Shown: positions 1-50,172, numbered from the stretch's first letter. The stretch is 64,000 nt of DNA from an uncultured virus (IMG/VR IMGVR_UViG_3300017923_000003) (IMGVR_UViG_3300017923_000003:1-64000); one strand, 5' to 3'. A program made the numbers and translations. The notes: a model not told the origin generated them from the letters alone.

Positions 1-210
1 GGGGGTACTATATAAATTATTAACATAATTTTTAAATTTATTTTAAAAATTATAAGTTCTTCTTTGTTGTCTGTTTTTACCCCGTCACTTTTCGATTTTT
101 GTCTATAGTTGTTCCCCACATAAAAATATTATTTTTTATTCTTCACATTTTTTTCTGATAACAATATTCTTGAAGCATTTTTAAAAATAATTTTTGGGAG
201 GTGAAGTCAT

Positions 211-1374
211 TTGAAAAAACCATCAGTTGATTTTTTGTTTGCCACAGAGATCAAAATTCAAGATGTTGAGATCCCATATATGTATTTTGAGAGTTTGGTT
301 GTTAAAAAGAATTTTCTCGATTATAGATTTCCCTTCATGGTTTTAACGATGAATATGCCTCCTAAAATTTTTTATGAGATTTTAAGAGATGTAGATATAT
401 CAGATCCAGTGGTGAAGGTGAACCTAAATACGTTCTATAAGGCAACAGATCTTGAAGAAGACTCCCCTTTTAGATTACATTCATCTGGAGAATACCTTGG
501 TGTGATTGACACACCCTATTTAAGTTACAGCCCATTCTCAGATGGTGAACCAACAGAAAGGGGAATATCACAGGCACAACAGGAAAACCAGGTAATGAGA
601 ATAGCACTTTATAAGAAAAAAGATATTAATGCCTTTAAATACGACTATATCAATACGGTTATGAAGAATTTCACTGTACTTGACGCTTTAGGTTATGGTT
701 TTAATACAGCAACTAATGGTGATATGAAACTCATTATATCTCCACCCGATAATACGACAAGTTATAAACAGGATTTGATAGCACCAATGGGGTTTTACCA
801 ATTCGTTAGATATTTGGATAACGAAATGGGTATTTATGATACCAGTTACAATATCTTTATTGATGACGGTGTTGTTTATATCCTAAATAAGAAAAACGAT
901 CATGGTATAAAATTAAAAAGCACAGATGAATATGAAAAAACTATCAAGATAAAAACTATAGCAGCAGATGAAGGACCAAAGCAAAACTCTTTAGATATGA
1001 GAGATGATTGGACTTATTATGTTCTTGAGGAAAACGATATTAAAAACGAACTTATATTGGAACGTTTTGGCAATGTAGAATCAATAGTCTCTAATATAGA
1101 TCCTGAACTTACAGGTCCTGTTGGACCAAGACCATACGATGAGATAAATGTTTTAGAAATGAAAAGTAATAGATTTAAACACCACAAAAAAACTAAGTTT
1201 GATACCGAACTCATGGATGTTTATTTAGGTAATTTACCATTAGATGTAAAACCATACACTTATTTCAAGTTAGAGGGTAAATTGTCTAACAATAAATATA
1301 GGATTGCAGGATATACAACAGTAATACAAGGTAAACGGTCTTTATCTAAACTTAAGCTGCTAAGGGTGACTTAA
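211..1374 (+). CDS. Hypothetical protein, probably virion/baseplate structural
   Basis: 387-aa ORF with TTG start after a GGGAGGTG RBS and a late-type AACAA motif at 160-164. The structural role is guessed from context only. Confidence 0.45.
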   Translation: MKKPSVDFLFATEIKIQDVEIPYMYFESLVVKKNFLDYRFPFMVLTMNMPPKIFYEILRDVDISDPVVKVNLNTFYKATDLEEDSPFRLHSSGEYLGVIDTPYLSYSPFSDGEPTERGISQAQQENQVMRIALYKKKDINAFKYDYINTVMKNFTVLDALGYGFNTATNGDMKLIISPPDNTTSYKQDLIAPMGFYQFVRYLDNEMGIYDTSYNIFIDDGVVYILNKKNDHGIKLKSTDEYEKTIKIKTIAADEGPKQNSLDMRDDWTYYVLEENDIKNELILERFGNVESIVSNIDPELTGPVGPRPYDEINVLEMKSNRFKHHKKTKFDTELMDVYLGNLPLDVKPYTYFKLEGKLSNNKYRIAGYTTVIQGKRSLSKLKLLRVT

Positions 1375-1383
1375 GTTTATGAT

Positions 1384-1812
1384 AACATTCTAACGATTTC
1401 TTGGTTGTATACTGGGCGTACAACCAATACAAAAATATAACTTTCTTACAATATATTATGACAAATAATTCTTGTTTTATCTTTTCTGCCTCTGAGCACC
1501 CTTTAATATAAATAATAGCTTCCTTTATTCAGTTAATAAATATAAAATGATTCAGCTCCTGTAAATACAAATGAGACTTTGTATTGCCTAGTATATTCTT
1601 GCAATCTTTTTAATATAAATGTTTTTTGCATAATATGAATACTCTCCTTTAATAAGTAAAGCTTTTTCACGATAATTGCAAGTCAGAAAAACTGTTCTGT
1701 ACTTGCCACCGATATTTAGGTTATATCATCTCCTAATTAAATAAAAAATATAACCTAAGTATCAACTCCTTTTAAATATTTATTTTACCCAGGGCGCAAT
1801 GCCCTGGGGTTT
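1384..1812 (+). ncRNA. Candidate structured non-coding RNA or long 3' UTR carrying multiple anti-SD tracts
   Basis: About 430 nt with no long ORF. Hairpins at 1401-1428, 1563-1585, 1678-1706 and 1716-1758, six CU-rich anti-SD tracts, and a closing terminator. Confidence 0.4.
1788..1812. terminator. Bidirectional intrinsic terminator
   Basis: CCCAGGGC-GCAAT-GCCCTGGG stem followed by a T tract, between convergent units. Confidence 0.75.
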
Positions 1813-1816
1813 TAAA

Positions 1817-3286
1817 TTACTTTTCGTTATATTTGACATTCTCTAACCATTCGTTATAGAAACCTAATTTAACATACATACCTATATTATAGTTTGCACC
1901 GAAATCTGCACTCTTTTCTTCTATCAATAAATTTTGTGAATCTATAATAAAGGACCTATCCATATTTTCTTCCTCATCTTTAAAATATTTGATCTTTATA
2001 TAATTTTCAACATTCATCGCATATTCGAATCTAACTGTATATTCATTATCACCGTCCACTAAGAGATTACCTGTAGATAAAAAGGTGATTGTATTGTTTT
2101 TATAATTTATTTCATAATCATCACTCTCTTGACCAACCAAAAGTCTTACTGTGTTTTCATTTACATTGAAACCAATATCATAAGGTACATCATATTCTTC
2201 TGGTTTAATAATCTTTTTACCTTTTCTATTTGTCAAAAATCCATAGAAGTTATCGAAATTGTCATATAATAGATTTTTGCAATCTATAGTTTCCTCTGCT
2301 CTATCGAATTTCCAGTCTGCATTGATTACCTGTTTATAATCCTCATCCTCATAAACTTTCCAGTCGTATCTAACCCAATCTCTAACACCAATTTCTAAAG
2401 CGTCATCTGGTGCTTCAGCATCATTGGTCACAAACATTCTAGGTCTATCCAATTTTAGAAAACACATAGAAGGAACATTTATTTCTATTTCAAAAGGTCT
2501 TGTTAACATGAAATCTGTTGTGATGGAACCCTTTCTCATTCCATCTGTTAGATTGGAACCCATACCAGTATAATCTAAAAATGTTTCATATTTTAAAAAT
2601 ATCTCTTGGTTTCCGTTACCGAGATTCTTTTTAAGTTCAACAGGGAAAAAGGATTGTCTTTTGATATGGTGGTAAGCTTCTTCTATATTATCTGGATTTA
2701 TATCGTGTGCATCACAATACTCTAAATAAACATCTTTGGGTATTGGGAAAGGTATAACCACTGTCTTCCTATATAACCTTCCGGGGTATCTTTTAGCTCT
2801 CCAATAGTGATACACATTTATCAACTTAGATCTATAGTCATCTATTACATTGGCCTCAACCGTCAACTTAATTCTTTTAAAAGAAAAAGATACAGCTATA
2901 TTTTTGGCATTGTCTCCTCTGTTGTGTGTTAGTATAAATGGATCTGTAAATGTTCTCACATCCATTATGTGGCTTAAATCTGTATTGTATAAAAGAGGTG
3001 ATAATACACCACCCTCGTAAGATGTATCTATACTAACATTTAAATTCAATATAGGTTTAGGATTAGTCAATAAACTTTTTGGTGTTTTGATTAAATTCTC
3101 TTTAATTGCTATTCGGGTATTTATATTGTCATATTTGAAGTTTAAAATGTCATCCAAATCATCTAATACTGAATATTTAAATATAGAAACTATTTCACCG
3201 TATATGTAGGCTAAATCTATGAGTGCTGTTGACTTATATTCATAATCACTCTCGAAGATATCTTTTTTTATTTTCAAATTCATCAC
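1817..3286 (-). CDS. Hypothetical protein, probably virion structural
   Basis: 489-aa ORF with a GGAG RBS and a late-type promoter motif (TTGTT at 3308-3312). Confidence 0.5.
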   Translation of the reverse strand: MMNLKIKKDIFESDYEYKSTALIDLAYIYGEIVSIFKYSVLDDLDDILNFKYDNINTRIAIKENLIKTPKSLLTNPKPILNLNVSIDTSYEGGVLSPLLYNTDLSHIMDVRTFTDPFILTHNRGDNAKNIAVSFSFKRIKLTVEANVIDDYRSKLINVYHYWRAKRYPGRLYRKTVVIPFPIPKDVYLEYCDAHDINPDNIEEAYHHIKRQSFFPVELKKNLGNGNQEIFLKYETFLDYTGMGSNLTDGMRKGSITTDFMLTRPFEIEINVPSMCFLKLDRPRMFVTNDAEAPDDALEIGVRDWVRYDWKVYEDEDYKQVINADWKFDRAEETIDCKNLLYDNFDNFYGFLTNRKGKKIIKPEEYDVPYDIGFNVNENTVRLLVGQESDDYEINYKNNTITFLSTGNLLVDGDNEYTVRFEYAMNVENYIKIKYFKDEEENMDRSFIIDSQNLLIEEKSADFGANYNIGMYVKLGFYNEWLENVKYNEK

Positions 3287-3361
3287 TCCTTTATAAAACT
3301 ATTATAATTGTTTCATTTGGGGGTCAAAGGAAACAAACACTATAGTGTATAAAAGGAAAGG

Positions 3362-3670
3362 GTGAACATAATGGATGAAGAAAAAAAGAAGGTTGAAGAA
3401 AACCCTATAGAAAACTATAATGAAAACACAAGCTGGGTTAGTATACTCAAAAGAGTTATAATTTCCACACTAGGAAAAGATGATATAAGAAATGATGTTA
3501 TTTTAACTGCAATAGTATTTTTTTTATTTCTTTTCCTGAAAGAGGGACTTATAGAAGATACTTCATTTTTCAATTCTCTTAAATGGATTTCTTCTTTGAT
3601 AGTTGTAGGTACGGGTGCTAAATATTTCAAAGAAGAAGCACACGAATATTTAAAAAATAAGAAAAAATAG
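3362..3670 (+). CDS. Small two-TM membrane protein, holin-like
   Basis: Two hydrophobic segments and a basic C-terminus (LKNKKK). Confidence 0.45.
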   Translation: MNIMDEEKKKVEENPIENYNENTSWVSILKRVIISTLGKDDIRNDVILTAIVFFLFLFLKEGLIEDTSFFNSLKWISSLIVVGTGAKYFKEEAHEYLKNKKK

Positions 3671-3683
3671 GAGGTGAGAAAAA

Positions 3684-4205
3684 ATGAAAACTAAATTTAA
3701 ATTATTTCTTGCTAAACTCTCTGAATACAAAGAATATATTCTTTATGGGTTAACCATTGTTTTGTCCATCATAATTAGTGTGTCATTAAATAGTGATGGT
3801 AAAAAAATGAGAGAGAAAAGAAAAAAGAAAGTAGAGGAAAAGAAAGAAAAGACTAAAGAACTAAAAAAAGAAGCTAAAAAGAAAAAGGAAGAAAAAGAAA
3901 CTATTATAAAAGAAAACCAAAAAGAATTAAAAGAGGCAGCTAAAAAAACGGGCATAATAAAAGAGGACCAAGATAAGATAGATCGATTAAGAAAACAGGT
4001 TAAAGAACGGGGAAAAATTATAGATAAAGAAAAAGAATTAGCTGAAGAAACAGCTGAGAGAGTTGAAGAAATAAGAGAAAAAAATGACAAAAAAATAAAG
4101 GAACAGGAAGAGGAATTAAAGAAAGTGAGGGAAGAGGATGTTGAACTCACAGATGAAGAAGTTAGCGATACTTTTGATAGTATTCTTAATGACGATACAA
4201 ATTAG
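3684..4205 (+). CDS. N-terminally anchored coiled-coil protein, i-spanin-like
   Basis: Single TM segment (YILYGLTIVLSIIISVSL) followed by a long K/E coiled coil; GGAGGTG RBS. Confidence 0.45.
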   Translation: MKTKFKLFLAKLSEYKEYILYGLTIVLSIIISVSLNSDGKKMREKRKKKVEEKKEKTKELKKEAKKKKEEKETIIKENQKELKEAAKKTGIIKEDQDKIDRLRKQVKERGKIIDKEKELAEETAERVEEIREKNDKKIKEQEEELKKVREEDVELTDEEVSDTFDSILNDDTN

Positions 4206-4692
4206 TCCTGTTGTTTTTGCACATGGTGAACTAAACGAAGAGGAAGAGAAAAAGATAGCCGAGGAAATTGTGAAATTAAGAAATGAAATCGGTGTATTAG
4301 AAACAAATAATGAAGAATTAAAATCTATGCTAGAAGAAGAACGTGAGATACATGATAAAAGAGTTAACGAACTTAAAGGAACCATAAATACACTGGAAAA
4401 ACAAAATGCCGATTTAACCACCATTAAAGATTACTATATGGAATTGGTTGGTGCTTTAATGGAAGAAAACCGATTGTTAAAGGAATCATTAAAAGAAGAA
4501 CGTATAGCTAATGATCAGTACACCATGAAATTAGAAGACATAACCGAAACACAGGATGAGACTATCGTAAATTTAGATGAGATAAACGAATCATTAGAAA
4601 GAGAAAATACAAGATTGAGAATTCAATCCAAAATAAATAAATACTTATACTTTGGTATAGGTGTTGGAATAACTTACCTTATATTAAAATAA
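4138..4692 (+). CDS. Signal-peptide coiled-coil protein with C-terminal TM anchor, possible spanin partner
   Basis: MKKLAILLIV...VFA signal peptide, heptad repeats and C-terminal YLYFGIGVGITYLIL; overlaps the previous gene in another frame. Confidence 0.4.
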   Translation: MLNSQMKKLAILLIVFLMTIQISPVVFAHGELNEEEEKKIAEEIVKLRNEIGVLETNNEELKSMLEEEREIHDKRVNELKGTINTLEKQNADLTTIKDYYMELVGALMEENRLLKESLKEERIANDQYTMKLEDITETQDETIVNLDEINESLERENTRLRIQSKINKYLYFGIGVGITYLILK

Positions 4693-4788
4693 CACACGGT
4701 GGGTTTAAAACCCACCTTTCTTTCTCTACGATATAAAACGTCGAGAACAATCCAATTAGACCACAATGAATTAAAGAGAGGTGTTTAT

Positions 4789-7740
4789 ATGATATTTTTG
4801 GAAGACTTATCAACGATGAAAATAGGCAGAAGAATCTATGCTCTAAGTAGAAAGAAACCATATACAAAAGGTAGATTTATAATACCTATGTTCACTAATT
4901 TTGATGATACATTAAAGTACATAAATGATTCCCAACAGAATTCACCATATCATTTACACTTAAGAAGAGTTAAAGCTATTTATGTTGATAGAATTTATAA
5001 AGAAAAAATTCTTTCACAGAGAGTGTATATGAAAAATGATTTGAAAAAAGTATACGATTATGTTAAAGATAATTGTCCCGAGATAAAATATATGTATAGG
5101 AATTTATCTCAATACTCTAAAAGAAATCTTTTTTATGATGTATCGTTAATAAATGAAATGATTTTTTCTAAAGATATAAAAAATTACAAATTTGTAGATG
5201 AATATTATAAGACAATCATAAAGGATATAATAAATTCAGCAGAAGAATACGATGACAAATACATTTTATTCGATATATCTGATACTGATATTGTGAATGT
5301 TGGGGATATCAAAAAATCAGATTATACAACCCCCAATTTACTATACCTTTTTCTTTATGTTTTAAAATATAATCCTGATTTAAAATACTTAAAAGATGTA
5401 TTCAAAGACACAACCATTGTCTTTACTTCAGAAAAGGGATTATTTAAATTATCATTTGATGAGAGGTTGGATGAATATCTTAAAGAGAGTAACTCTGATG
5501 TGAGTGATCTTTTAAAAGATATACTGTTGCGTTTTAGAAGACTTAAAACTTCAGACGATGATGACGAAGAAACTAAAGAAAACGATAACGACAGGATAAA
5601 ACACGAAGTAACTGACGCTGTTGTAGATACATTAGAAGATGAAGATTCTCCTGATGAAGAGATAGACCCCGAAGGAGAAATAGAAAAAGAAGATAAAGAA
5701 GAGAAAAAAGATGTACCGCTAATAGAGGAAGAAGTTTTAGATAAAGTAATTAATATGACTGATGAACCGGAAAAAGCAAAAGAGATATCTAAAATATTGA
5801 AGGAAGTAAGGACTAAAGCCCTAGAGAGAGTATCTGAAATGGGTGAGAAAGAAAGAAAATATATCGAGGATGTTATGAATGTGGAAATAGATGATATGTC
5901 GTATTCTGAACTTCTAGAAGAAATAAAGGATATAGATGTACCAAAAGATTCATATGATATAACAGCCATAGATAAATACAATGAGAACTCTTTTGTTAAC
6001 TTCAATAAAACATATGATGAAAAATTAAAGAAATTTGATATTACAGAAATAGCACAATCTTTCTCTAATACAGATGTCCCCTTATACATTCAAAAAATAG
6101 AAACAGAAGACTCATCAGATGAGTTAAACTATACTGAAGATATCAAAATGAAATTCAAAGATTTAGAGGGTAATAGGCACAATGTGAAAATAACATTACC
6201 AAAATTGGTTTATGATAAATTTGTGTATCTTGGTGGTTCTAAAAAAAATATCATAGGACAGATCATGAGTAACCCCATAACAAAAAATGAAGAGTACGTT
6301 ATTATAACCTCAAATAGAAATAAATTACGGATGACATATAAAGGTGGAAAATACCTATCTCCTATTTATTCTAAATTTGTCAGAGGTTTTAAAAAGTTTG
6401 AAGATGAAAATAAGTCTGATATAATTAATTTTGAATCAGCTTTTGAAACCAACTTCAATACAGGGGAAACCACTAGAGAATATAATGGTATATCAAGATA
6501 TTTATCAGAAGTAAACACAAATAGCGTTAACCTTATATTCGATTATGAAAAATCAAAACAGTTGTATGAAAACGATAATGAAAATGAAATTGTTCTAGGT
6601 GAGATAGAAGGTAACGAGATAATCCTAAATAAAGAGACAGAAACCATAACCACCGATGGTGATTATAAGGGTATGGTTTTATCAGAATTTCTGATAAAAG
6701 TTTCAGAGGAATATATCCCAAAACTCCATAAGTATATTGAAGAAAAAAACACAGTGCCAAAAACTATCGTTTATACTTCTGTAAAGATACTGGGTAAAGA
6801 TGCACCCTTAGTTCTTATATTAACTTATCTTATGGGCTTAGATTCTTTAATGGAAAAAATGGATATTGATTATAGGTTAGAAACTAAAGAAAAGAAACCA
6901 AAGATAGATAAATTTAAAGAAGGTCTAATTGAATTTGAAGACACATATTTAATTTATAAATATGATTCAATGGCTAATATATCTATTATGAGTTACTTGC
7001 AGAGAATGGATCTTTCTGGATACGAACTAGCAGACTTAGAAGATAAAGATGTTATGGCAAATATATTAGAAGATGAAATGGGTAGTCATAATTTCCCAGT
7101 ATATATTGATAACTACAATAATACGATGATAGATGCAATAACCAAAAATATATTGGTTCATTTTTCCTTACCCACTGAATTCACCGATCTTTTAATTTAT
7201 GCTAATTATCTATTATCCACAGCTGTAAATGAAAAGGACATCGATATAAGAAATTCAAGGGTTAGATATCAGGAATTAATAACTGCGACAATGGCTAATG
7301 TTTTAGCTGATGAATATGAAAAATTCTCTGTTGCTAAAAAAAGAGGTAATACTAAATCTACTTTCTCAATTGATAAAAATGCTGTAATTAAAAAGTTATA
7401 TGAATTACCAAACCTTGAGGAATACTCTACTGTTAATCCAGCTAGAGAGATAGATAAATATTCATCTGCTTCAATGAAAGGTCTATCTGGGTTGAACTTA
7501 GATAGAGCATACACAGCAGATAAGAGATTGTATGATCCTAGTTTCTATGGTAAATTCTCTATGGCTTCTGCTTACTCAGGTTCCATTGGTGTTGTAAAGC
7601 ATTTTGGTGTAGACCCAAAGATATTATCTGCTAGAGGGTTTTTTGAAAACGTAGATATGGAGGATGTGGATGATCTTGATTCTAAAACACTCCTATCTAT
7701 ATCGGAAGTTTTAACTCCTATGACCACCTCAAAAGATGAT
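4789..7740 (+). CDS. Multisubunit RNA polymerase beta-like subunit (likely virion RNAP), exon 1
   Basis: ATG at 4789 after GAGGTG. Beta-like motifs near the 3' end (SASMKGLSG, SISEVLTPMTTSKDD, compare LIPFLEHDD). Frame is interrupted by a group I intron. Confidence 0.85.
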
Positions 7741-8047
7741 CAATTTTAGGTCCCACCATATAGTAATATATGAGTGCGTATCCCCTTAACCTTAATCAAG
7801 GGTGTGTTAGATGTATTCTAATGCTAACGGTATCAGTTGAATAAGATCACCTGTGTGACAATCACGGGTATTGACCAAGAGCGAAGGAACTGACTAAGAG
7901 ACCCTAAGACCCAAACATTTGAATATGAATGGGTAGCTGGAAATACCGTGCTACTAAAGAGTGTAACGACTACCTCGCAAGAGGGTACTATTGAATATTG
8001 ATAACCAATAGGAAACAGGGGAATACCAAAAAAAAAAAGGATACAAT

Positions 8048-8860
8048 TTAAATTGTACCCCTTAATTTTCTTAATGTTTGTACAGAAATATTGAATTTTT
8101 TCGCTATCGAATTAAATGAGTAATCGTTATACCCATTCTCTTTATTTTTCAAAACACGTATTATTTCTTTTTGATCTCTAAGAGAAATGGAATTGAAATC
8201 GTTGGTTGCTTTTTTTAAATTATAAGATTTACTTATATGTGTGTATGTTTTTCTTAAACGGATATCGTTTATTTTATAAACGGGAATGTCGGTTATTTCA
8301 CTTATGAAATGATTTCTTTCACCTTCTTCGATAAGCTCACATATCCTTTTTACTTGGGTGACTGAAAGAGATCTGGCGTAACCCTTATCCATTTCTTTAG
8401 GGTCGTATAAACCTGTGTCTAATGCATGCTGGAAATTCTCCGCACTGGTGCACCATTCCAAATTAGTTATATGGTTGTCTTTTTTAATTCCATTCATATG
8501 GTTTACGGTTAGGTTTTCGTGATTTTTATTGTAGTTAAAGAGTAAAGAAACTAACCTATGAGCAGTATATTTATTTCTTTTCTTTGGAAAAGTATCTTTA
8601 AAGGATAACGAATAATAAATATAACCGTAACTATTAATCAATGGTTTTAGCAAACCACCATAAAACTCACTATAGACATACCCGTTTAAACTAATGTAGT
8701 AATAATCTTTAATTTTGTTTATCACGTTATTTATTTTTCTCATAAAATAAATATTAGAATTAACTTTAACAACATATAAGTTTTTTTTAAAATCATCTTT
8801 TAATTCGATAGGAAATATTTCTTGACTTAAGGATACAAATTCTTTTTCATATAAATGCAA
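8048..8860 (-). CDS. HNH homing endonuclease, antisense within the intron
   Basis: AHRLV...VNHMNGIKKDNHITNLEWCT HNH motif plus C-terminal HTH-like repeats. Probable TTG start at 8860 after AAGGAGG. Confidence 0.9.
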   Translation of the reverse strand: MHLYEKEFVSLSQEIFPIELKDDFKKNLYVVKVNSNIYFMRKINNVINKIKDYYYISLNGYVYSEFYGGLLKPLINSYGYIYYSLSFKDTFPKKRNKYTAHRLVSLLFNYNKNHENLTVNHMNGIKKDNHITNLEWCTSAENFQHALDTGLYDPKEMDKGYARSLSVTQVKRICELIEEGERNHFISEITDIPVYKINDIRLRKTYTHISKSYNLKKATNDFNSISLRDQKEIIRVLKNKENGYNDYSFNSIAKKFNISVQTLRKLRGTI

Positions 8861-8884
8861 TTTGTTTTCCTCCTTTCTGTATAT

Positions 8885-8896
8885 ATAATATATAAT
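8885..8896 (-). promoter_or_regulatory. Early-type phage promoter motif TTATATATTAT driving the antisense HNH
   Basis: The same 11-mer occurs upstream of seven other minus-strand genes. Confidence 0.65.
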
Positions 8897-8973
8897 CGTT
8901 TTTTGGTATATAATATAGTCTAGTCCCACTTATTTATTAAGTGTCAAAGTATCTCGAAAGAGAGGGTATATCG

Positions 8974-10137
8974 GCCCCAAGAACTGCTATGAATTTAAGT
9001 CAGACAAACCACCTTATGGGTGTTGAAGATGCAGACCCCCTAATGGTCTCCACTGGTGCAGATGAAGCTTTAGCACATATGTCAAATGAGTTTGTTAGAA
9101 AATCTAAAAAAGACGGCGTGGTATCTAATATATCTGGAAATTATATTACCGTGGAATACTCTGACGGAACAGAAGATAGTTTCCCTATAAATTCTGTAGA
9201 AAAGAATTCAGCTAAAAGTATGTATATATCTAACGAAATGAAGTTGATGCCAAAAATTAAAGTTGGTAAGAAAATAAAAGCCGGCGATGTTTTAGCATAT
9301 AATAAAAACTTCTTTAAAACAGACGGATATTCACTTCATTTTACTCCTGGTCCAATAGTTACTCTAGCATTACATTCAGCACCAGAGACTTATGAGGATT
9401 CCACTATGGTTTCTAGATCACTTACAAAAAGATTAGCAACAAAGGTTATTAAAAAATATGCTGTTCTTTTAAAAAATGATGCTAAAATACATGAGTCTGT
9501 TGCAGAATTCAAAGAGGTGAGATCTGGAGAACCGTTAATGGTTTTCGAATCCATGACTGGTGATGAAGAGGTTGATGAGTTTTTAAATGTAGAGTCATCA
9601 GAATTAAATCAACACGAAAAGAAAGTAAAACGTGGTGGTAGAATAGTTGATATGAGAGTTTATAGAACTTCTAATCTTGACGAATATTCAAACAGTATAC
9701 AATACCATATAAGAAAAATAGATGATTTTTTATTAAATAACAAACAATCTAATGCTAAACAGTTGGAAGAACATGGTTCAACTGAAAGTAAAATTCTTTT
9801 CGGTAAGAAAAATGCTAAGGTAAAGGTTGGTGATAAAATAAATGGTATAAAACTTAATAAAGATGAAGTTTTATTTGAGTATTATGTGGAAAGTTATGAT
9901 ATCTTCTCCACTGGTGATAAGGGTACAAACTATACCTCTTTAAAAGCCATTAATGCCAGAGTTTACGATGACGAGAAGATGCCAACAGGTGTTGAAACTG
10001 GTAGAAATGTTGATGTGGTTTTATCACCAAATTCACCTATGAAAAGAATGACTAACTCTGTTTTTATTTCAGGGCTCCTAACAGGTGCAATGAGAAAACT
10101 TATAAAACAGTGTAAAGAAGATATGGACATCGAATAA
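8974..10137 (+). CDS. RNA polymerase beta-like subunit, exon 2
   Basis: Motifs TYEDS, GDKGTNYTSLKAI (compare GDKMAGRHGNKGV) and DVVLSPNSPMKRMT (compare DIVLNPLGVPSRMN). Spliced product about 1371 aa. Confidence 0.9.
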   Translation, partial: APRTAMNLSQTNHLMGVEDADPLMVSTGADEALAHMSNEFVRKSKKDGVVSNISGNYITVEYSDGTEDSFPINSVEKNSAKSMYISNEMKLMPKIKVGKKIKAGDVLAYNKNFFKTDGYSLHFTPGPIVTLALHSAPETYEDSTMVSRSLTKRLATKVIKKYAVLLKNDAKIHESVAEFKEVRSGEPLMVFESMTGDEEVDEFLNVESSELNQHEKKVKRGGRIVDMRVYRTSNLDEYSNSIQYHIRKIDDFLLNNKQSNAKQLEEHGSTESKILFGKKNAKVKVGDKINGIKLNKDEVLFEYYVESYDIFSTGDKGTNYTSLKAINARVYDDEKMPTGVETGRNVDVVLSPNSPMKRMTNSVFISGLLTGAMRKLIKQCKEDMDIE

Positions 10138-16741: not shown

Positions 16742-16909
16742 CTACTCTTCTAAACTAGATTTAAATATTAATGACTGAGATTTTATTAGACTTAACCCCT
16801 CATTAACTTTCCTTTTATAATCTACTATGTGTACTTTAGGTTGCATATACACATGGATGTCCATATATAAATCTCTATCTTGGTGTGTCATAGTAAGTGC
16901 ATCACCATC
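16742..16909 (-). CDS. RNA polymerase beta' N-terminal subunit, exon 2 (55 aa, not in the ORF track)
   Basis: Reads DGDALTMTHQDRDLYMDIHVYMQPK...SSLEE* directly after the intron terminal G. Confidence 0.85.
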   Translation of the reverse strand, partial: DGDALTMTHQDRDLYMDIHVYMQPKVHIVDYKRKVNEGLSLIKSQSLIFKSSLEE

Positions 16910-17963
16910 CGTTTACACCCTGGTTTTCACCAAATTTATCTTACTAGGGACTAGACTATATCATCAGCATCTCAGCTGCTCTGCTTTTGGGTACTCAATT
17001 TCTCTTTCCCTACTCTACTAAGTTCTCATCGGCCATATCATTCAACCGAATCCCTTTTCGATAGTCGTTGAACGTTTTGTTTTGTGTTATTTTTTAAATA
17101 GATATCCCTAACATCATACACCCTATGTCTATTGGTATTATGTCTTTTAGCGATATCTTTTATACTCAATTTATCATTTATGAGATCATCGATGATACTT
17201 TTTATCTGATCCAGATTCAGAGAACGAAACTTATGCATTTTACCAAAGGTATACTGTTTTGTAATGTCAGTATAGTTGGTTTTATTACATATTTTTTTTA
17301 CAGCTTCATATGAAACATCGAATTTATCTGCTATATGTTTGGGTCTTTCTCCTTTTTCTCTTTCTTCGCATATTTTGTGAATTAAACCTAAATCTTTTAT
17401 ATAATCACCGTATTCGTCACGAACACCGTTTTTAATTGAATGTCTCCAATTTTCTCTATTTGTCACCCATTCTAAATTATATAGATAATTATTTTTCTTA
17501 TCTAGATCTTTATGGTTCACCACCATGTTGTCGTGATTGTCTATATAATTGAATACTAACATCAATAAACGATGCACACCAAAAGATTTTTTATTACCGG
17601 TTTTATCATACAGGTCAACTTTCAAATAGCCACGTTTGTGGTCATCATGTGTTGATAAGAAACCACCTGTATATTCACTATAAACGAACCCACCATCACA
17701 TATATAATAGATGTCTTTTATATCGAAAAGAATATCCGATATACGTCTCATATAAAACTCTTTTTCGTTCTCTTTATAAAATATAGTATTTTTAGTAAAA
17801 TTATCGTTAAATAATTCATGTGTCATAGAAATCACCCCTTTTCCACACACACAAAACAACTTCGCTGCTGATTACCCACACCATTAGTGTTTGGGCTTCC
17901 CAGCAATTAACAGAGTTTTTCATAGCATCTTCTTTTATTCGATTGCTATGCCACTTTTTTCAA
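16910..17963 (-). mobile_element. Group I intron in the RNAP beta' catalytic motif, with sense HNH in P6
   Basis: P element AATTGCTGGGAA, Q element AATCAGCAG, R element CAACGACTA, S element GATATAGTCT. P1 is CCAU/GUGG with a U-G pair; terminal G at 16910. Splicing gives YNGDH|DGD. Confidence 0.9.
17038..17826 (-). CDS. HNH homing endonuclease, intron-encoded, sense orientation
   Basis: VHRLL...VNHKDLDKKNNYLYNLEWVT. ATG at 17826 after AGGGGTG. The C-terminus (VQRL) reads through the P7 R element. Confidence 0.9.
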   Translation of the reverse strand: MTHELFNDNFTKNTIFYKENEKEFYMRRISDILFDIKDIYYICDGGFVYSEYTGGFLSTHDDHKRGYLKVDLYDKTGNKKSFGVHRLLMLVFNYIDNHDNMVVNHKDLDKKNNYLYNLEWVTNRENWRHSIKNGVRDEYGDYIKDLGLIHKICEEREKGERPKHIADKFDVSYEAVKKICNKTNYTDITKQYTFGKMHKFRSLNLDQIKSIIDDLINDKLSIKDIAKRHNTNRHRVYDVRDIYLKNNTKQNVQRLSKRDSVE

Positions 17964-26793: not shown

Positions 26794-27674
26794 TATCCTC
26801 CTCTCAATTTCTCTGTTATATCCTTTGCTAAAATTTTATTGTCTGTTTTAGAATCCACATAATATGGTAACATGTCTGTTAAGGAACGCACAAATTTTTC
26901 AAAATTATCATTTATATAAGAAATAATGTAGTCCCTTGACTTATAATCTAAAAGCCACTCAAACATAAGTTCCAACATATGTTCCTTATATGTTTGATAG
27001 AATTCATCACAAAGTATAGGTACAACTCTGTATTTCTCGTAATCAATAGGCGTATCCTTATCAACCACGAATCTTTCTTCATTGAATTTGTCGTCACTTT
27101 CAGCTGTTATACCCTGCATATTTTTATACATCATAAGGTAATCAACTGGTGAACCCAACCATTCTATAACTTGACCAACCCATATTGCAACGGTTTCTAC
27201 AAGTGTATTTAAAACCATCTTTTCATTTAAGAGTTCAACAAATTCACCCGGAACCTCATTTAAATAATAGATGGCTAGATTGGGGCACTGCTCAATTAAC
27301 ATATTATCATTAAAACTTTCTATTAATTCATCCAAAAGTTTTTTGTCTTTTGGGTATCCTCTATAAAAAGGCAGATACATAATATCAATAGCCTTCTCAC
27401 AATATATATGGCACTTACCGCAGTCTTCGTCACAATCCATCCATGATTTTTTATTTTTAAAATTTAAAACATCTATTATCTCTTCTATATATTCATGTAT
27501 TAGATCCTCATGACGAAACACCTCAAAGAAAAATGGTGTCTTTTCAATAAGTTCATATAACCCGTCTCCTATTTCTCTAAAAACTTTAGGATCGTTTGTA
27601 ACATCGTATAAATTTTTAAAATACATATAATCTTTTACATTTACCATTTCTTCACCTCCCAATTTCTCAATCAT
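26790..27674 (-). CDS. Hypothetical protein with a CDEDCGKCHIYC Cys cluster
   Basis: 294-aa ORF; four Cys may bind metal or an Fe-S cluster. Confidence 0.55.
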   Translation of the reverse strand: MIEKLGGEEMVNVKDYMYFKNLYDVTNDPKVFREIGDGLYELIEKTPFFFEVFRHEDLIHEYIEEIIDVLNFKNKKSWMDCDEDCGKCHIYCEKAIDIMYLPFYRGYPKDKKLLDELIESFNDNMLIEQCPNLAIYYLNEVPGEFVELLNEKMVLNTLVETVAIWVGQVIEWLGSPVDYLMMYKNMQGITAESDDKFNEERFVVDKDTPIDYEKYRVVPILCDEFYQTYKEHMLELMFEWLLDYKSRDYIISYINDNFEKFVRSLTDMLPYYVDSKTDNKILAKDITEKLRGGY

Positions 27675-28185
27675 GTACCTTACATTCCTCTATTATAGTG
27701 TTAAGATTGCGAGAAAATTTATTCTTAATGGTTTTGGTATCCAAAATCAATTCAGCCATCTTAATGAGCTCTTTTAAAAGCGTATTCTCATTCTTATCTT
27801 TTATTAAGGATAGAAAATCACGTAAATGTGATTCATCGACCTCATGTAATATTTGGATTAAGAATTTTACTACACTTTCTTTATTATCTATTGAGTCCAT
27901 TATATTTTTTATGAGCATATATAATTCCTTACCCATTAAACACTGTATCTTTAATGAATCCAAAAGCATCTCAATATTATCCTTACTGTTTGCTTTTTTT
28001 ATTACCTCTTTAATTAGCTCCTCGTCATTTTCCCTCAATATTTTAGAATGTCTGGACTCATTTAAATGTTTCACTATATTAAAATTGATATTCTTAGCTA
28101 TTTCTAAAACTTCTTCATCTTCAATATTTTCTATTTCTTTTGGATCATTTAAAACTCTTAAAAAACTATAAACTGCATTCATCAA
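27667..28185 (-). CDS. Hypothetical early protein
   Basis: AGGAGATGAT RBS; early motif at 28228-28238. Confidence 0.6.
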   Translation of the reverse strand: MMNAVYSFLRVLNDPKEIENIEDEEVLEIAKNINFNIVKHLNESRHSKILRENDEELIKEVIKKANSKDNIEMLLDSLKIQCLMGKELYMLIKNIMDSIDNKESVVKFLIQILHEVDESHLRDFLSLIKDKNENTLLKELIKMAELILDTKTIKNKFSRNLNTIIEECKVHD

Positions 28186-28227
28186 TAATCATCTCCTAAT
28201 TAATATTATTATTACCGTTCTAATATA

Positions 28228-39103: not shown

Positions 39104-39156
39104 TATAATTTATATAGTAGTTTACCCCAGGGTTTTTACACCCTGGGATTTATATA

Positions 39157-43568: not shown

Positions 43569-45392
43569 CTACTGTTTATCTTTTCTTCTACTTTCAAATA
43601 GTATATCGAATTTAGAAGGTTTAGTTTTCTCGTAGTTTCTCAAATCAGAAAGCATAGATTTAAAGAACCCGATATTCAATTTAAGACCGAGTTCTTTAAA
43701 GTTTCTTATCGCTGTCTGCATTGTTAGTATCTCCTCTTTTGGTTCTTCTTTAGAATAATCAGGTCTCTCCTCATTTTGACCCTCTTTTCTAATGATGTTT
43801 CTAATTAAGAGATATGGCACAATTGCTTTTTCCTTTTTCATCAGCTGTTTTAATTCTTTCATTGCCTTTTGTATGTTACCATTGTTTTTATTGAATACCT
43901 TATCCAATTCATGGTATCCAGATGAAACGGGGTTATTTATAATCTCGATATGGATTTTTTCTATATCATCTACTAATCCAGACTCGTAATCTATATTCGG
44001 TTTTTCAGTATAAAATACAGAGTTAGTTTGGAATTCCATTGTGTCACCATTTTTCATTTTGATTTCCATTTTTCTTCTGAATCTGGCTTTCCTTTTACCC
44101 TTATCCTTTATCTTAATCAACCTTATCTCATCGATGTTCTTTTTAAACCCTTCTTTAAAAACCAATTTATTTATATACTTTAAATCGAAATAATCGTGCC
44201 AGTTTTTCTTTCCATTTATTCTGGTTAAAGGTTTCCCATCTTTGTCAAAGAGTTTCGCTACAATATTGTGCTTAGCAGATAGGTGACCCTGAACCTTTGG
44301 TGCAACTTTCTTTTTAGATATAGCAACACCGAAGTTTCTTTCTCCACCATGATAACCTTGAAGATTATCGTAATATAATTTTTCACCGATACAGTAATGA
44401 CAAACACCATCATCACTATTACATGTGTAAGGTTGTCTTAGTAATATTTTTTTACCAATCAAATGTGTGTCCTTTTCTGTTATCAGTTGTGGTTTACCAT
44501 CGACTTGATGGTATAAATCTATAAATCTTTGGAAGTCCTTTTCATCTTCTATCTTCTCTTCTGCAAAATGAATGGTGTCACAACAGTAATCAGGGTCTGG
44601 ATTTAAATAATTTGGTTGTGCCAACATTGTAGAACGCTTATTGAATGTACCAGTTTTTCTTATATCCAGTTTCTGGATTATTAAAGCATTTCTTGCTGAA
44701 TCATTTTCAGCCCAAAAGGAATCTTTATTGGTGAGACCATTGAGCCAATTCTCGTTAATAAGGAAAGGATAGACACTATCTTTATTATTGGGTCTTATAC
44801 CAACACCTACCACTATATCATGAAACTGTGGCTTACGCATAGCAGCTTCAGCAGTAAGGAAGGTATACATAGGATCTATCTTTTCTTTTAAAATAAAATC
44901 TTCAATCTCTTTAGATAACTTCTGCTTTTTTCTCATTATCTCAAAGGCATTCATTTCTTCATTAAAATTATTCCCACTTAAAATTTCTCTCATTCTGTCA
45001 GATTTCTTCATCATTTTTATGAAGTCATATAAAGATATATCAACTGATAATCTAAAATTAAATATCAGTGTATACTCATTAACTCTTTCTTGAACTTCAT
45101 AAATTAAATCTTTGGTTTCATCGACCGTTTTCCCAAGTCTAAAACATTCGTCGATAATTCTCTGTTTGTAATTGGTTAAGTTGCTACTTGAACCAGTTTC
45201 TAAAAATAAGAATTCTTTCACTCTTAATTTTTTGGGTAACACATCAAATACAAGTGCATTCAAACCAGCTCTAGCAATAGTTAATTTTATTTCCTCATTA
45301 TTTAAACTGAACATCTTTTTTTGTTTGTAGTTTTTTATGTTTAATTTTAGATCTCTTACAATCTCTTCTCCATCTTTAACTATATCTAACAT
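43569..45392 (-). CDS. RNA polymerase beta' C-terminal subunit (likely non-virion RNAP)
   Basis: Bridge helix ARNALIIQKLDIRKTGTFNKR, Zn site LRQPYTC...VCHYC, trigger loop QGHLSAKH; early promoter upstream. Start at 45392 or 45404. Confidence 0.85.
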   Translation of the reverse strand: MLDIVKDGEEIVRDLKLNIKNYKQKKMFSLNNEEIKLTIARAGLNALVFDVLPKKLRVKEFLFLETGSSSNLTNYKQRIIDECFRLGKTVDETKDLIYEVQERVNEYTLIFNFRLSVDISLYDFIKMMKKSDRMREILSGNNFNEEMNAFEIMRKKQKLSKEIEDFILKEKIDPMYTFLTAEAAMRKPQFHDIVVGVGIRPNNKDSVYPFLINENWLNGLTNKDSFWAENDSARNALIIQKLDIRKTGTFNKRSTMLAQPNYLNPDPDYCCDTIHFAEEKIEDEKDFQRFIDLYHQVDGKPQLITEKDTHLIGKKILLRQPYTCNSDDGVCHYCIGEKLYYDNLQGYHGGERNFGVAISKKKVAPKVQGHLSAKHNIVAKLFDKDGKPLTRINGKKNWHDYFDLKYINKLVFKEGFKKNIDEIRLIKIKDKGKRKARFRRKMEIKMKNGDTMEFQTNSVFYTEKPNIDYESGLVDDIEKIHIEIINNPVSSGYHELDKVFNKNNGNIQKAMKELKQLMKKEKAIVPYLLIRNIIRKEGQNEERPDYSKEEPKEEILTMQTAIRNFKELGLKLNIGFFKSMLSDLRNYEKTKPSKFDILFESRRKDKQ

Positions 45393-45509
45393 CTTATCCC
45401 TCACCTCATGTTTTTATATTTTCAGACTATTAAATTGTTAACAACAATTATTTTTTATTCATATTAATATCATCTCCTTATTAAAAAATATTTTTTTCTA
45501 TTCGAATAT

Positions 45510-45521
45510 ATAATATATAAT
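45510..45521 (-). promoter_or_regulatory. Early-type promoter motif
   Basis: TTATATATTAT. Confidence 0.65.
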
Positions 45522-45564
45522 CATAAAAAAAAAGCAGGTGGTTTTAAACACCTGCTATATTTTT

Positions 45565-46472: not shown

Positions 46473-46574
46473 TTATCTCCATTTACTAGAATCTCCAAAA
46501 TAACCTTTCTTTATTAAATAGACACAATAAACAAAAGCCATTAAACCAAGAATAATATTTGATTTATCCATCAT
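46473..46574 (-). CDS. 33-aa membrane micropeptide (not in the ORF track)
   Basis: MMDKSNIILGLMAFVYCVYLIKKGYFGDSSKWR, with an AGGAG RBS; fills the intergenic gap. Confidence 0.55.
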   Translation of the reverse strand: MMDKSNIILGLMAFVYCVYLIKKGYFGDSSKWR

Positions 46575-47469
46575 ACATCACACTCCTATTGTGATTTAAT
46601 ACGAGATCACTTTTAATTTCCATGACACCCAACTCCCCCATAAGTTCTTTTTTAAGAGGTGTCTCGTAATCAATAGTTTGAGAACTGAATATCAGTAATC
46701 TCAAAAACTCACTGTAAATGTCTATCACCTCTTTCATATTTTCAGGATCCAAATAGATTAAATTCTTTGCCTCTATAAATGTATCCAAATATTCAGGATG
46801 AATTAACTCATTGATAACATGTGATAAGTTTTCTTTGTTATCGGAGTACCTCCCAGCATATTCATCAATAATGAATTTAAATTCCAAGTTATTAACTTCA
46901 TAATCATCGGGATGATTATAACTTGTCCCGGGATAATTACCAGCTCCCTCTATATAAAAGAACCACTCATTAATTAGTTCTTTTATTCTGGGTAAATATT
47001 TTTTAAAATCTCCCATTTTATAATCGCCCAAATACTCTCCAAATTCTGGGTGGTATAAATAGGCCCATGGAACTCTACCTCTTTTTTTCATTTCAAAGAT
47101 GAACGATTCCAAACCTTTGAAAAATAGATCCCTGTAGACAGCGTGAACCTTACCCAAAAGATCCGATAATAAAAGATTTTTGATTCTCGCTTTTACATCG
47201 GGGTTTTCTAAAGAGGATAGATTTGGCATCAGAGTATTTCTTGGTACATTACCATAATGCTTTATGAATTTATCGTAGTCCGATAAATAACTTACTACAT
47301 TTTCTAAATCTAATTCCTCATGAGTGATAACCGTCTCATTTAATTTATTGTCTAAATACTCAAATGTTATTTCATCATAATTTGTATTGATATAATCAAC
47401 TAAATAATTAACACCCCCTTTCCCTAAATTAACATAAAAGTTTTTCTTTTTAGGCTCCATAAATATCAA
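46564..47469 (-). CDS. Hypothetical protein
   Basis: Early operon ORF. Confidence 0.6.
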   Translation of the reverse strand: MIFMEPKKKNFYVNLGKGGVNYLVDYINTNYDEITFEYLDNKLNETVITHEELDLENVVSYLSDYDKFIKHYGNVPRNTLMPNLSSLENPDVKARIKNLLLSDLLGKVHAVYRDLFFKGLESFIFEMKKRGRVPWAYLYHPEFGEYLGDYKMGDFKKYLPRIKELINEWFFYIEGAGNYPGTSYNHPDDYEVNNLEFKFIIDEYAGRYSDNKENLSHVINELIHPEYLDTFIEAKNLIYLDPENMKEVIDIYSEFLRLLIFSSQTIDYETPLKKELMGELGVMEIKSDLVLNHNRSVMYDG

Positions 47470-47473
47470 CTCC

Positions 47474-47845
47474 TTAAAACTTAAACTTATTTAATTTCTT
47501 TATAAGATATTCTGTTGAAAATCGTACTATCTCCTTTATACTATTTGTGGTTAATATACTTTCTTTATCGTATTCCTCCTTTTTGAATACATCAAATATA
47601 TTTGACCTTTCATCATTTGTGATCATTATGGTATCTAATACTTTCTCTCCCTTTTTAATCTGTATTGAAAAACCATAAAATTTTTTTGATTCACTTTCTA
47701 TATTCACCTCCAGTTTCAATTTATCATCGATTGCTAGTTCTGGGTGTCTAGCTTTATAACTATTAATGTTTTCTAAAACTGTCTCCAAAATCTCCTCTAC
47801 TACTGAATATTTTTTCAGTATCAACATTTTTTCCATCTCCTTCAT
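47474..47845 (-). CDS. Hypothetical early protein
   Basis: Early motif at 47854-47864. Confidence 0.55.
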   Translation of the reverse strand: MKEMEKMLILKKYSVVEEILETVLENINSYKARHPELAIDDKLKLEVNIESESKKFYGFSIQIKKGEKVLDTIMITNDERSNIFDVFKKEEYDKESILTTNSIKEIVRFSTEYLIKKLNKFKF

Positions 47846-48893: not shown

Positions 48894-49236
48894 AAAAAGT
48901 GTGTCCTACCATACTGGAAACAGTGTGGTTAAAATTGCCTTAAATGCTGGGAGTTCTTAACGCCCCTGTACCAAAATATGCGGTGAAAACCCATACAAAG
49001 GTGACGAAAGTCAGAAACAAGTTAGGGGATTCTCTATGGTGAAATAAAAACACCACCCAATTAAGGATGGTGCCCTAAGGAGAGTTATAATGGATAATCA
49101 GCAGCCGAACATCTAAAATGACTTTTATATAGGTCATCATGGTGTGGGTTCAGAGACTAGGGTATCTTTTTAGATATAGTACAGCCCTCGAAAGGTTCAC
49201 TAAAAACCCATGTGATTAAATGGAAACAGGCAAATC

Positions 49237-50172
49237 CTAATCATTTTTAAACATTCTTTGGAAATTTTTATTATTCAATGTATACCCTATGGTGGAAATA
49301 TTTTTGTGATCGATTCTTTTTGAGATTTCAGAATATGAATAGCCTTTTTCTTTTAATTTGAATATTTTTTCAACTTCTAATAAATTGAAAGAAGTTCTGT
49401 TAATAAAGTCGGGAGAATGGTTGGCATGTTTTTCTATTATATACCTAACCGTATTATAATTGATACCTAATCTTTCTGAGATATGTTTTCTTCCCTCCCC
49501 ACCATAGTATAAGGTCAAAATAGGTTCTATTGTTTCGGGCCCAAATGTCTCAATTAACCCAGTATTGATAGCGTGCATTGAGTTTTCTCTTGTGGTCACC
49601 TGCTCTAAGTTACTGAGGGTATTGTTTGACTTAATGCCGTCTTTATGGTTTATAACTAGATCAGGATCCATGGGTTCAACGTATGTGCTATATAAAATAC
49701 GATGCATCATTCTTGTCTTTAAATTTAATGTCACAAAGACATATCCCTGAGGGGTTTGATGCTCAGATAATATTTTATATGTTTCGGTGTTGAATACACG
49801 ACCATCTATATCCACGATATATTTGGTGTATTTTTTATCATCGTATTTTAAAAATTTGGGTTTTTTGAAACCATGTCTATTTTCAACGTAATCGAAAACA
49901 TTGGATATCTTCACGTTGTTCAGTTTGGTTTTTTTATTAGGGTAATAAGATATTATTGTGTCTTCACTCTTTTCATATTCCAAAAAAGTATACGCAATTA
50001 GCTCATGTATATGAAAAGATTTTGAAGACCCCTCATGATACATTTTGACAAACTCACCTTTACCATTTTTATATATAGTTAAAGGTCTATCGTATTGTCC
50101 ATAAATGAAACCATCCTTATCAATGTGATAATCAAATAAAGTTTCCTCAGTATTAATTTTTACATTTTTCAA
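49237..50172 (-). CDS. HNH homing endonuclease, antisense within the intron
   Basis: MHRIL...INHKDGIKSNNTLSNLEQVT, a degenerate N-terminal duplicate of the module, and C-terminal HTHs. TTG start after AGGGGG. Confidence 0.9.
   Translation of the reverse strand: MKNVKINTEETLFDYHIDKDGFIYGQYDRPLTIYKNGKGEFVKMYHEGSSKSFHIHELIAYTFLEYEKSEDTIISYYPNKKTKLNNVKISNVFDYVENRHGFKKPKFLKYDDKKYTKYIVDIDGRVFNTETYKILSEHQTPQGYVFVTLNLKTRMMHRILYSTYVEPMDPDLVINHKDGIKSNNTLSNLEQVTTRENSMHAINTGLIETFGPETIEPILTLYYGGEGRKHISERLGINYNTVRYIIEKHANHSPDFINRTSFNLLEVEKIFKLKEKGYSYSEISKRIDHKNISTIGYTLNNKNFQRMFKND

Follow-up and report, generated by a model that had tools for sequence, protein, structure and literature searches.

A possible late non-coding RNA with anti-Shine-Dalgarno tracts in a convergent gene gap of an uncultured giant phage

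In Firmicutes, riboregulators of the RsaE/RoxS type are structured RNAs of about 100 nucleotides (nt) whose C-rich motifs, placed in loops and linkers, target the Shine-Dalgarno (SD) sequences of many mRNAs. A long 3' untranslated region (UTR) with an anti-SD motif is known from icaR, and small RNAs of the MicL/DapZ type derive from 3' UTRs and are transcribed from a promoter that lies within the coding sequence upstream. Giant phages that encode multisubunit RNA polymerases of their own use early and late promoters to time gene expression. Here, we analyze a gap between two convergent genes at positions 1375-1816 of a 64,000-nt stretch of DNA from an uncultured virus (IMG/VR IMGVR_UViG_3300017923_000003:1-64000; hereafter the window). 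The genome of the phage measures about 195 kb and has a G+C content of about 30%, and the window covers a part of it. We propose, with a probability of roughly 0.4, that this gap is the body of a late, plus-strand non-coding RNA of about 513 nt that acts by generic SD sequestration.

Like the RsaE/RoxS regulators, the putative phage RNA would be structured and end in an intrinsic terminator, and it has several pyrimidine-rich motifs, in predicted loops and linkers, with the potential to bind the G-rich SD sequences of multiple mRNAs. Unlike them, it would be about 513 nt long instead of about 100 nt, its motifs are inverse copies of ribosome-binding sites (RBSs) of the CUCC(U) type instead of C-runs, it is phage-encoded and probably late, and it matches no Rfam family. 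Preferential pairing with targets, by which the RsaE/RoxS type is recognized, was not seen here, as the phage RNA pairs with start regions no better than controls with swapped RBSs (for C-rich SD-targeting riboregulators, see the parts of PMC8216469, PMC5419742, and PMC6158497 drawn on here). The translation of icaR is controlled by pairing between its 5' and 3' UTRs, according to the portion of PMC3868564 used here. The phage RNA would likewise be a long 3' untranslated region with anti-SD motifs; however, it has six tracts where icaR has one, its pairing with the start region of its own mRNA is unremarkable (rank 11 of 67), and a role in cis of the icaR kind has no special support. As in MicL/DapZ, the predicted promoter lies in the upstream gene, here within 86 nt of its end, and one terminator would serve both the RNA and the mRNA of that gene, whereas the promoter is of the type used by the non-virion RNA polymerase of jumbo phages and the RNA is much longer.

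The transcription signals of this phage resemble those of Bacillus phage AR9. In the passages of the AR9 account drawn on here (PMC5312081), the early promoter consensus is AAATATATATTAT-(6N)-G and the late consensus is AACA-(6N)-TA/G, with the last A or G as the start site; 13 late promoters are internal and 7 antisense, some lie inside open reading frames (ORFs), and the virion polymerase tolerates little deviation from the consensus. As in AR9, early-type motifs (ATTATATATTAT) and AACA-type late motifs are concentrated upstream of genes. The window holds seven exact copies of ATTATATATTAT, every one on the minus strand and 5' of minus-strand genes, and 31 copies of the late-type motif AACA[AG]-N5/6-TAG or TGAAG (14.6 expected), 21 of which are intergenic, typically 29-110 nt 5' of a start codon on the same strand. 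Unlike in AR9, the late motif is extended (AACAAT and TAG) and has a spacing of 6 or 7. As judged by PHROG matches, the window encodes split subunits of the RNA polymerase beta family. For genome-wide counts we used a CheckV-complete relative of 194,604 bp (G001), which is 99.87% identical to the window over positions 1-7740 and 89-97% identical elsewhere.

The gap measures 442 nt and separates gene 211-1374 (plus strand, 387 amino acids) from gene 1817-3286 (minus strand, 489 amino acids). Both are late genes: the late motif is present 5' of each, at 160 and at 3312, respectively. Genes were called with a crude caller, by which the genome is 92% coding and the complete relative has 21 convergent junctions. 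In 13 of these the junction is only 17-45 nt long, and thus the length of the gap is truly unusual, as the first-pass annotation of the sequence had noted with its figure of about 430 nt. Most of the short junctions hold one GC-rich hairpin with an A-tract on one side and a T-tract on the other; the remaining long junctions reflect wrongly called starts or stops, save a structured segment of 304 nt that adjoins an HNH endonuclease gene. In the nearest relative (67-77% protein identity), the two flanking genes have homologues on a single contig whose locus tags are adjacent, which we read, assuming a tag step of 5, as no annotated gene between them. The features of the gap and its surroundings, all of them predicted, are as follows.

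1288-1301, plus strand: late-promoter-like motif AACAATAAATATAG, still within gene 211-1374, at its 3' end; predicted start A1300.
1300-1333, plus strand: 5' arm of a long-range closing helix, pairs with 1575-1609.
1347-1379, plus strand: perfect 10-bp AT-rich hairpin, an inverted repeat present in the folds; spans the stop codon of gene 211-1374.
1401-1428, plus strand: hairpin with a perfect 9-bp stem (arms 1401-1409 and 1419-1427), from inverted repeat and folds.
1497-1503, plus strand: tract 1, CACCCTT (AAGGGTG on the minus strand), unpaired probability 0.64-0.71.
1519-1526, plus strand: tract 2, CTTCCTTT, unpaired probability 0.72-0.75.
1533-1631, minus strand (1631 to 1533): 32-codon ORF beginning MQKTFILKRL, with its ATG 12 nt after AAAGGAG.
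1555-1560, plus strand: tract 3, GCTCCT, unpaired probability 0.36-0.41.
1563-1585, plus strand: local 8-bp hairpin in the folds; its 3' arm competes with the long-range helix.
1575-1609, plus strand: 3' arm of the long-range closing helix, pairs with 1300-1333.
1642-1650, plus strand: tract 4, CTCTCCTTT; its complement is the RBS of the 32-codon minus-strand ORF.
1678-1706, plus strand: hairpin of 6+3 bp with one bulge, in the folds.
1711-1763, plus strand: 16-bp hairpin, made of a perfect 11-bp stem (1716-1726/1748-1758) and an extension with one U·G pair, from inverted repeat and folds.
1727-1734, plus strand: tract 5, CATCTCCT, in a hairpin loop, unpaired probability 0.98.
1764-1772, plus strand: tract 6, AACTCCTTT, in a single-stranded stretch 5' of the terminator, unpaired probability 0.97-0.98.
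1788-1808, plus strand (whole element 1788-1813): intrinsic terminator, a hairpin of 9 pairs, 7 of them GC, followed by GTTTT.

The real signal at this locus appears to be a promoter motif and a strand-specific helix that meet at a single base, outside the interval 1384-1812 marked by the first-pass annotation. The motif, AACAATAAATATAG at 1288-1301, matches the strict form of the late motif, AACAAT-N4/5-TAG, and lies 86 nt 5' of the stop codon of gene 211-1374. The strict form occurs 26 times in the 194.6-kb complete relative; 22 copies are intergenic and 4, including this one, are in coding sequence. No ORF follows the motif at 1288-1301, and for any one 150-nt stretch and strand, an orphan copy of the strict motif is expected with a probability of 0.0017, and one of the looser motif with 0.005. 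Applying the AR9 start rule to AACAATAAATATAG places the predicted start at A1300, and this is exactly the first base of the long-range helix. The helix, formed by 1300-1333 and 1575-1609, is interrupted and comprises 29 bp, including 4 G·U pairs, with an energy of -33.3 kcal/mol. The same 36-mer paired against 300 random windows gave a mean of -15.8 kcal/mol (standard deviation 3.0, minimum -25.8), with 0 of 300 as good, and none of 66 other 36-mers of gene 211-1374 fell below -22.7 kcal/mol. All 4 wobble pairs in the helix and one more in the 16-bp hairpin are G·U on the plus strand and C·A on the minus strand; because of the 4 G·U pairs, the minus-strand equivalent of the helix reaches only -21.8 kcal/mol. 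The helix was seen in both minimum free energy and centroid folds and still began at 1300 when 100 nt of upstream sequence were added.

A different start had been put forward, namely a near-consensus late promoter at 1384, and this part of the first-pass annotation did not hold. The sequence in question, AACATTCTAACG at 1384-1395 on the plus strand, fails the AR9-like late motif of the phage itself: just before the start base, where all good sites have T, it has C or G, whichever of the two spacings (6 or 7) is assumed. Its position 5 is T, a base found there in 47% of coding-sequence sites, whereas A is found in 31 of 45 intergenic sites. Within 1375-1816 we found no match to the late motif on either strand. 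Other promoter candidates were also rejected: in the gap, positions 1448-1459 match ATTATATATTAT with two mismatches on both strands, which is chance level (92 matches with at most two mismatches versus 72 expected), and sigma-70-type promoters are likewise at chance level (10 found, 8.3 expected). At position 5 of the AACA-N6-T[AG] sites in the complete relative, A is present in 31 of the 45 well-placed intergenic sites but in only 7% of the 150 coding copies. Its scarcity inside genes suggests that there may be selection against accidental late promoters there.

At the other end, the hairpin at 1788-1808 has the tail GTTTTAAATT on the plus strand and no U-run on the minus strand, and it qualifies as an intrinsic terminator. 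Its left flank lacks the A-tract that is typical of most of the short bidirectional junction hairpins. Between 1374 and 1788 there is no terminator-like site after gene 211-1374; therefore, transcription of the plus strand across the gap is the default expectation. The terminator at the end and the hairpins at 1401-1428, 1563-1585, 1678-1706, and 1716-1758 had all been listed before, and all were recovered here, the hairpins in the folds, two of them (1401-1428 and 1716-1758) also as inverted repeats, and the terminator with its 9 pairs and a T-run on the plus side only. The segment TTTGTATTG at 1578-1586 has an alternative pairing partner at 1425-1433, with which it forms an inverted repeat. 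The gap alone (1375-1816) has fold z-scores of -3.4 on the plus strand and -3.7 on the minus strand; with a shuffling procedure of our own it scored -4.0, against a mean of -0.93 for 14 random windows (standard deviation 1.15, minimum -3.06). Once the sequence from 1300 is included (1300-1816), the scores become -6.39 (plus) and -3.66 (minus).

All six anti-SD tracts named by the first-pass annotation are present, of the CUCC type and on the plus strand. Seen from the other side, the minus strand of the gap holds 4 copies of AGGAG and the plus strand 0, the expectation for 442 nt of sense-strand coding sequence being 0.29; less strictly defined SD-like sequences number 11 on the minus strand versus 0. 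The enrichment and strand bias have P = 0.03 in a first-order Markov simulation, and only 0.83% of 442-nt windows reach 4 copies of AGGAG on the minus strand. Among the non-coding gaps of at least 200 nt in the 195-kb genome, it alone carries 3 or more copies on a single strand. Internal tandem duplication was considered as an origin of the tracts and rejected, as the best self-alignment scored 25 and shuffled sequences gave a mean of 19.7 and a maximum of 32. Five of the six tracts are more exposed than the RNA as a whole (unpaired probability 0.64-0.98 versus 0.45-0.50 overall). Tract 5, CATCTCCT, occupies the 21-nt loop of the 1711-1763 hairpin; the perfect 11-bp stem previously ascribed to that hairpin is there and extends to 16 bp. 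In a minus-strand RNA, the exposure of the SD tracts would not exceed the average (0.41 versus 0.43).

The tracts are reverse complements of the generic extended SD consensus of the phage, which is strong and commonly reads AAGGAGATGAT or AAGGAGG. This bears on the targets suggested earlier. The underlying identities are exact: positions 1725-1740 equal 28188-28203 over 16 nt, 1760-1771 equal 47464-47475 over 12 nt, and ATATCATCTCCT is found at 1723, 19165, and 45467. However, with the phage's own RBS consensus as the background, the 16-nt "target" matches dissolve. Among 136 called RBSs of the complete relative, each scored by the exact stretch through its core that it shares with another RBS, 60 share at least 12 nt, 25 at least 14 nt, and 12 at least 16 nt, with a maximum of 23. 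The matches of the six tracts in that genome are 18, 13, 12, 9, 9, and 9 nt long, so that 3 of 6 reach 12 nt, and those of the four tracts with a GGAG core are 16, 12, 12, and 5 nt long in the window; by comparison, of 662 sense-strand GGAG sites located within genes, only 27 have a match of 12 nt. The tracts behave like real RBSs, and no better. The caution that a shared consensus inflates such matches was well placed, and the comparison with an RBS background, suggested along with it, left the seeds no better than the consensus, the very outcome that the first-pass annotation had named as speaking against gene-specific targeting.

We describe the proposed course of events from the predicted elements. 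Transcription would start at A1300, from the AR9-type late promoter AACAATAAATATAG inside the last 86 nt of gene 211-1374, and the transcript would end at the terminator at 1788-1808, at about 1812; the full mRNA would carry the same sequence at its end, and the RNA may also be seen as a 3' trailer belonging to this late mRNA of gene 211-1374. In the predicted fold, the first 34 nt would pair with 1575-1609, closing a 5' domain and burying the 5' end, and this domain would be followed by two strong hairpins and the terminator. The six CUCC-type tracts, mostly unpaired and one of them in a 21-nt loop, would pair with SD regions of mRNAs, in trans or on their own mRNA, and damp translation. The sequestration would be generic, with at most a weak bias toward the GGAGA-type RBSs typical of early genes; because the tracts can pair with any SD sequence, generic sequestration is the most economical mechanism. 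These parts differ in strength: the plus-strand RNA itself probably exists, its action by SD sequestration is a tentative proposal with the odds somewhat against it, and selective silencing of early genes is improbable. Thus, the outline given by the first-pass annotation, a late, hairpin-rich non-coding RNA of the plus strand that ends in a terminator and displays anti-SD tracts, is the best supported part of it, whereas the start at 1384 and the specific targets are not retained.

If such an RNA is made and binds SD sequences, the early-to-late switch of giant phages would also operate at the level of translation, and the anti-SD regulators with multiple motifs that Gram-positive bacteria possess would have a counterpart in a phage. 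The combination of phage origin, late timing, a length of about 0.5 kb, and six inverse-RBS tracts would be new. No RNA of this kind is described in the portions of the AR9 account used here, and a limited search of the giant-phage literature, those portions included (PMC5312081), found no RNA acting on RBSs.

Several observations weigh against our proposal. The promoter motif at 1288 overlaps a conserved peptide, N-N-K-Y-R, whose coding may partly explain it; by a rough estimate, about 10-15% of the synonymous encodings of this peptide spell the motif. The helix was noticed after the region had been inspected and is thus a post hoc observation. The tracts have a mean exposure of 0.76, compared with 0.65 ± 0.07 for a composition-matched null in which 7% of sets were equal or higher, a difference that falls short of significance, and their exposure is largely explained by the G-poor composition. 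When the six tracts were replaced by reverse complements of random real RBSs and paired with 67 start regions (the RBS-swap control), the controls gave a mean of -17.2 ± 0.5 and a best value of -26.3 ± 1.4 kcal/mol; the actual tracts gave -17.0 and -26.0. The RNA pairs with the start region of its own mRNA at -19.4 kcal/mol, the 11th rank already mentioned. A hairpin at 39126-39147 (CCCAGGG/CCCTGGG), 10 nt past the stop of a minus-strand gene, has the same geometry as 1788-1808, with a T-rich tail on the plus side only; it is called a plus-only terminator in a stretch that has only minus-strand gene calls, so the orientation of a T-run is weak evidence. Hairpins without a U-run may terminate or stabilize phage transcripts. 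When the two flanking proteins and alignments of them were used to scan viral, metagenome, and genome collections, all copies recovered were at least 99.9% identical across the region, with no diverged copy among them for an assessment of conservation or covariation. The 9 runs listed as carrying the sequence include none from RNA, and contigs from four runs have the identical sequence, save one C>T at 2329. Finally, no Rfam family reached its gathering score anywhere in the window, and the four sub-threshold matches near the gap (E = 2.5-9.9) belong to unrelated families. Searches with tblastn and blastn of the GenBank phage collection gave no match, and a search for tRNA and transfer-messenger RNA found none in the window. 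The case shows the limits of inference from sequence alone.

On the one hand, much of the same evidence could be accommodated by a plus-strand trailer without a function of its own, that is, the untranslated end of gene 211-1374's late mRNA, which would extend as far as the first available terminator, with hairpins that stabilize the 3' end and tracts that are incidental. The lack of a terminator-like site over 1374-1788, the target pairing that is no better than in controls, and the mostly compositional exposure of the tracts all fit this view. On the other hand, it leaves unexplained why four complements of AGGAG share one orientation when about 0.3 are expected, why no other gap of at least 200 nt in the 195-kb genome has three or more on one strand, why a strand-specific 29-bp helix begins at the predicted start site, and why so long a gap persists in a 92% coding genome whose convergent junctions are mostly (13 of 21) only 17-45 nt long. 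We regard such a trailer as unlikely, though by no means negligible. The same degree of doubt applies to the idea that the minus strand is the meaningful one, so that the tracts are RBSs, possibly decayed, of small leftward genes appended to gene 1817-3286, with the 32-codon ORF expressed by read-through. In its favor, the tracts match the RBS consensus as real RBSs do (at least 12 nt in 3 of 6 versus 60 of 136, and 27 of 662 within genes), AAAGGAG stands 12 nt before the ATG of the ORF, and the terminal hairpin, having no U-run on the minus side, would allow read-through. However, a start codon (ATG, GTG, or TTG) follows at 5-13 nt on the minus strand for only 1 of the 6 tracts, when chance alone (0.32 per site) would give about 2; thus, the tracts are not working RBSs. 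Their spacings of 22-88 nt are too tight for genes, no promoter motif or terminator serves the minus strand, the wobble pairs suit the plus strand only, and the locus tags of the flanking homologues are adjacent in the relative. As for the ORF, a search of 1.84 billion representatives returned only itself and one weak repetitive match to a 603-residue protein, the phage has no paralogue of it, and its codon score of 0.09 is ambiguous, lying between the means of spurious ORFs (-0.11) and real small genes (0.27).

Compared with these two, the version of the first-pass annotation, in which a late RNA starting at 1384 carries seeds against the early genes 27667-28185 and 46564-47469 and an RNA polymerase subunit gene and is perhaps processed into guides, is very improbable. 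Besides the exact identities, it can draw on the pairing of early-class start regions with the tracts, which is better than that of late-only ones (-15.4 versus -13.0 kcal/mol, p = 4e-4), on the GGAGA-type RBSs found in 11 of 16 early versus 4 of 44 late-only genes, and on the four GGAG-core tracts, none of which is complementary to GGAGG. Against it stand the failure of 1384 as a late motif, the fact that 16-nt matches occur in 12 of 136 real RBSs (up to 23 nt), and the nature of the early bias: one at least as large turns up in 18% of the RBS-swap control sets, a single tract is its main driver as the best partner of 9 of the 16 early-class start regions, and early-promoter-proximal start regions in the window are not significantly better targets (p = 0.20). 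Since 18% of controls reach the bias, selectivity for early genes stays conjectural. The least probable reading of all is a minus-strand sponge of the CsrB/RsmZ type, whose six GGA-containing tracts would soak up an SD- or GGA-binding protein or 30S subunits. Several A(A)GGA motifs, one of them in a hairpin loop, recall such sponges, yet the minus strand has neither promoter motif nor terminator, no Rfam family is matched, the tracts on that strand are no more exposed than average (0.41 versus 0.43), and the wobble pairs favor the plus strand.

Across the window and the complete relative, the classes of RBSs follow the classes of promoters. GGAGA(TG) is the RBS of 11 of the 16 genes directly behind ATTATATATTAT and of 4 of the 44 late-only genes (Fisher p = 1.2e-5), whereas GGAGG is the RBS of 3 of the 16 and of 23 of the 44, respectively. 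An elaboration of generic sequestration by the plus-strand RNA can be imagined from these figures, in which an RNA of about 0.5 kb made late acts as a multivalent SD sponge. Its six tracts, complementary to RBSs of the GGAGA/GGAGU type and none of them to GGAGG, would preferentially mask early messages (GGAGA in 11 of 16) and spare late ones (GGAGG in 23 of 44), and so provide an RNA-based early-to-late switch in translation for a phage already in charge of its own transcription; we consider this a long shot. A search of the phage for a RegB-type endoribonuclease that cuts at GGAG gave a best match of 13.8 bits, against a cut-off of 27, and control genomes gave similar values.

Two other gaps, 7750-8047 and 48933-49236, were considered as analogues of 1375-1816 and set aside: they are GC-richer, structured, and located beside HNH endonuclease genes, and represent a different kind of element. 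The former belongs to a 1,233-nt insertion (7741-8973) that is missing from the complete relative and consists of the GC-richer structured segment and an HNH endonuclease gene on the minus strand (8048-8929). The insertion splits an RNA polymerase beta-family gene, whose two pieces, 4699-7749 and 8941-10137, align with successive portions of the same PHROG profiles. It resembles a mobile intron or a homing element, but no Rfam intron matched it. Another HNH endonuclease gene (17038-17859) lies in a 1,057-nt segment (16907-17963) that is also missing from the relative, and a third (49237-50172) adjoins the 304-nt structured-looking segment at 48933-49236, which has 40% G+C. The relative, in turn, carries additional insertions of 310 nt and 1,054 nt. 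Its identity to the window is a mosaic, 99.87% over 1-7740 and 94.1%, 96.7%, 89.1%, and 93.3% in the next blocks, a pattern that points to probable recent recombination between co-occurring strains.

Near the end of the window, an open frame of at least 2,358 codons (56915-63991) reaches within 9 bases of the last position and has no PHROG match at E <= 1e-5. The region upstream of gene 43569-45404, which encodes an RNA polymerase subunit, has an early-type promoter (45510-45521), after which come a strong RBS, a mini-ORF of 4 codons (ATG AAT AAA AAA TAA), and then, still within 45420-45525, a late-type promoter motif with its start at 45439. The mini-ORF could be a leader peptide or a decoy start site.

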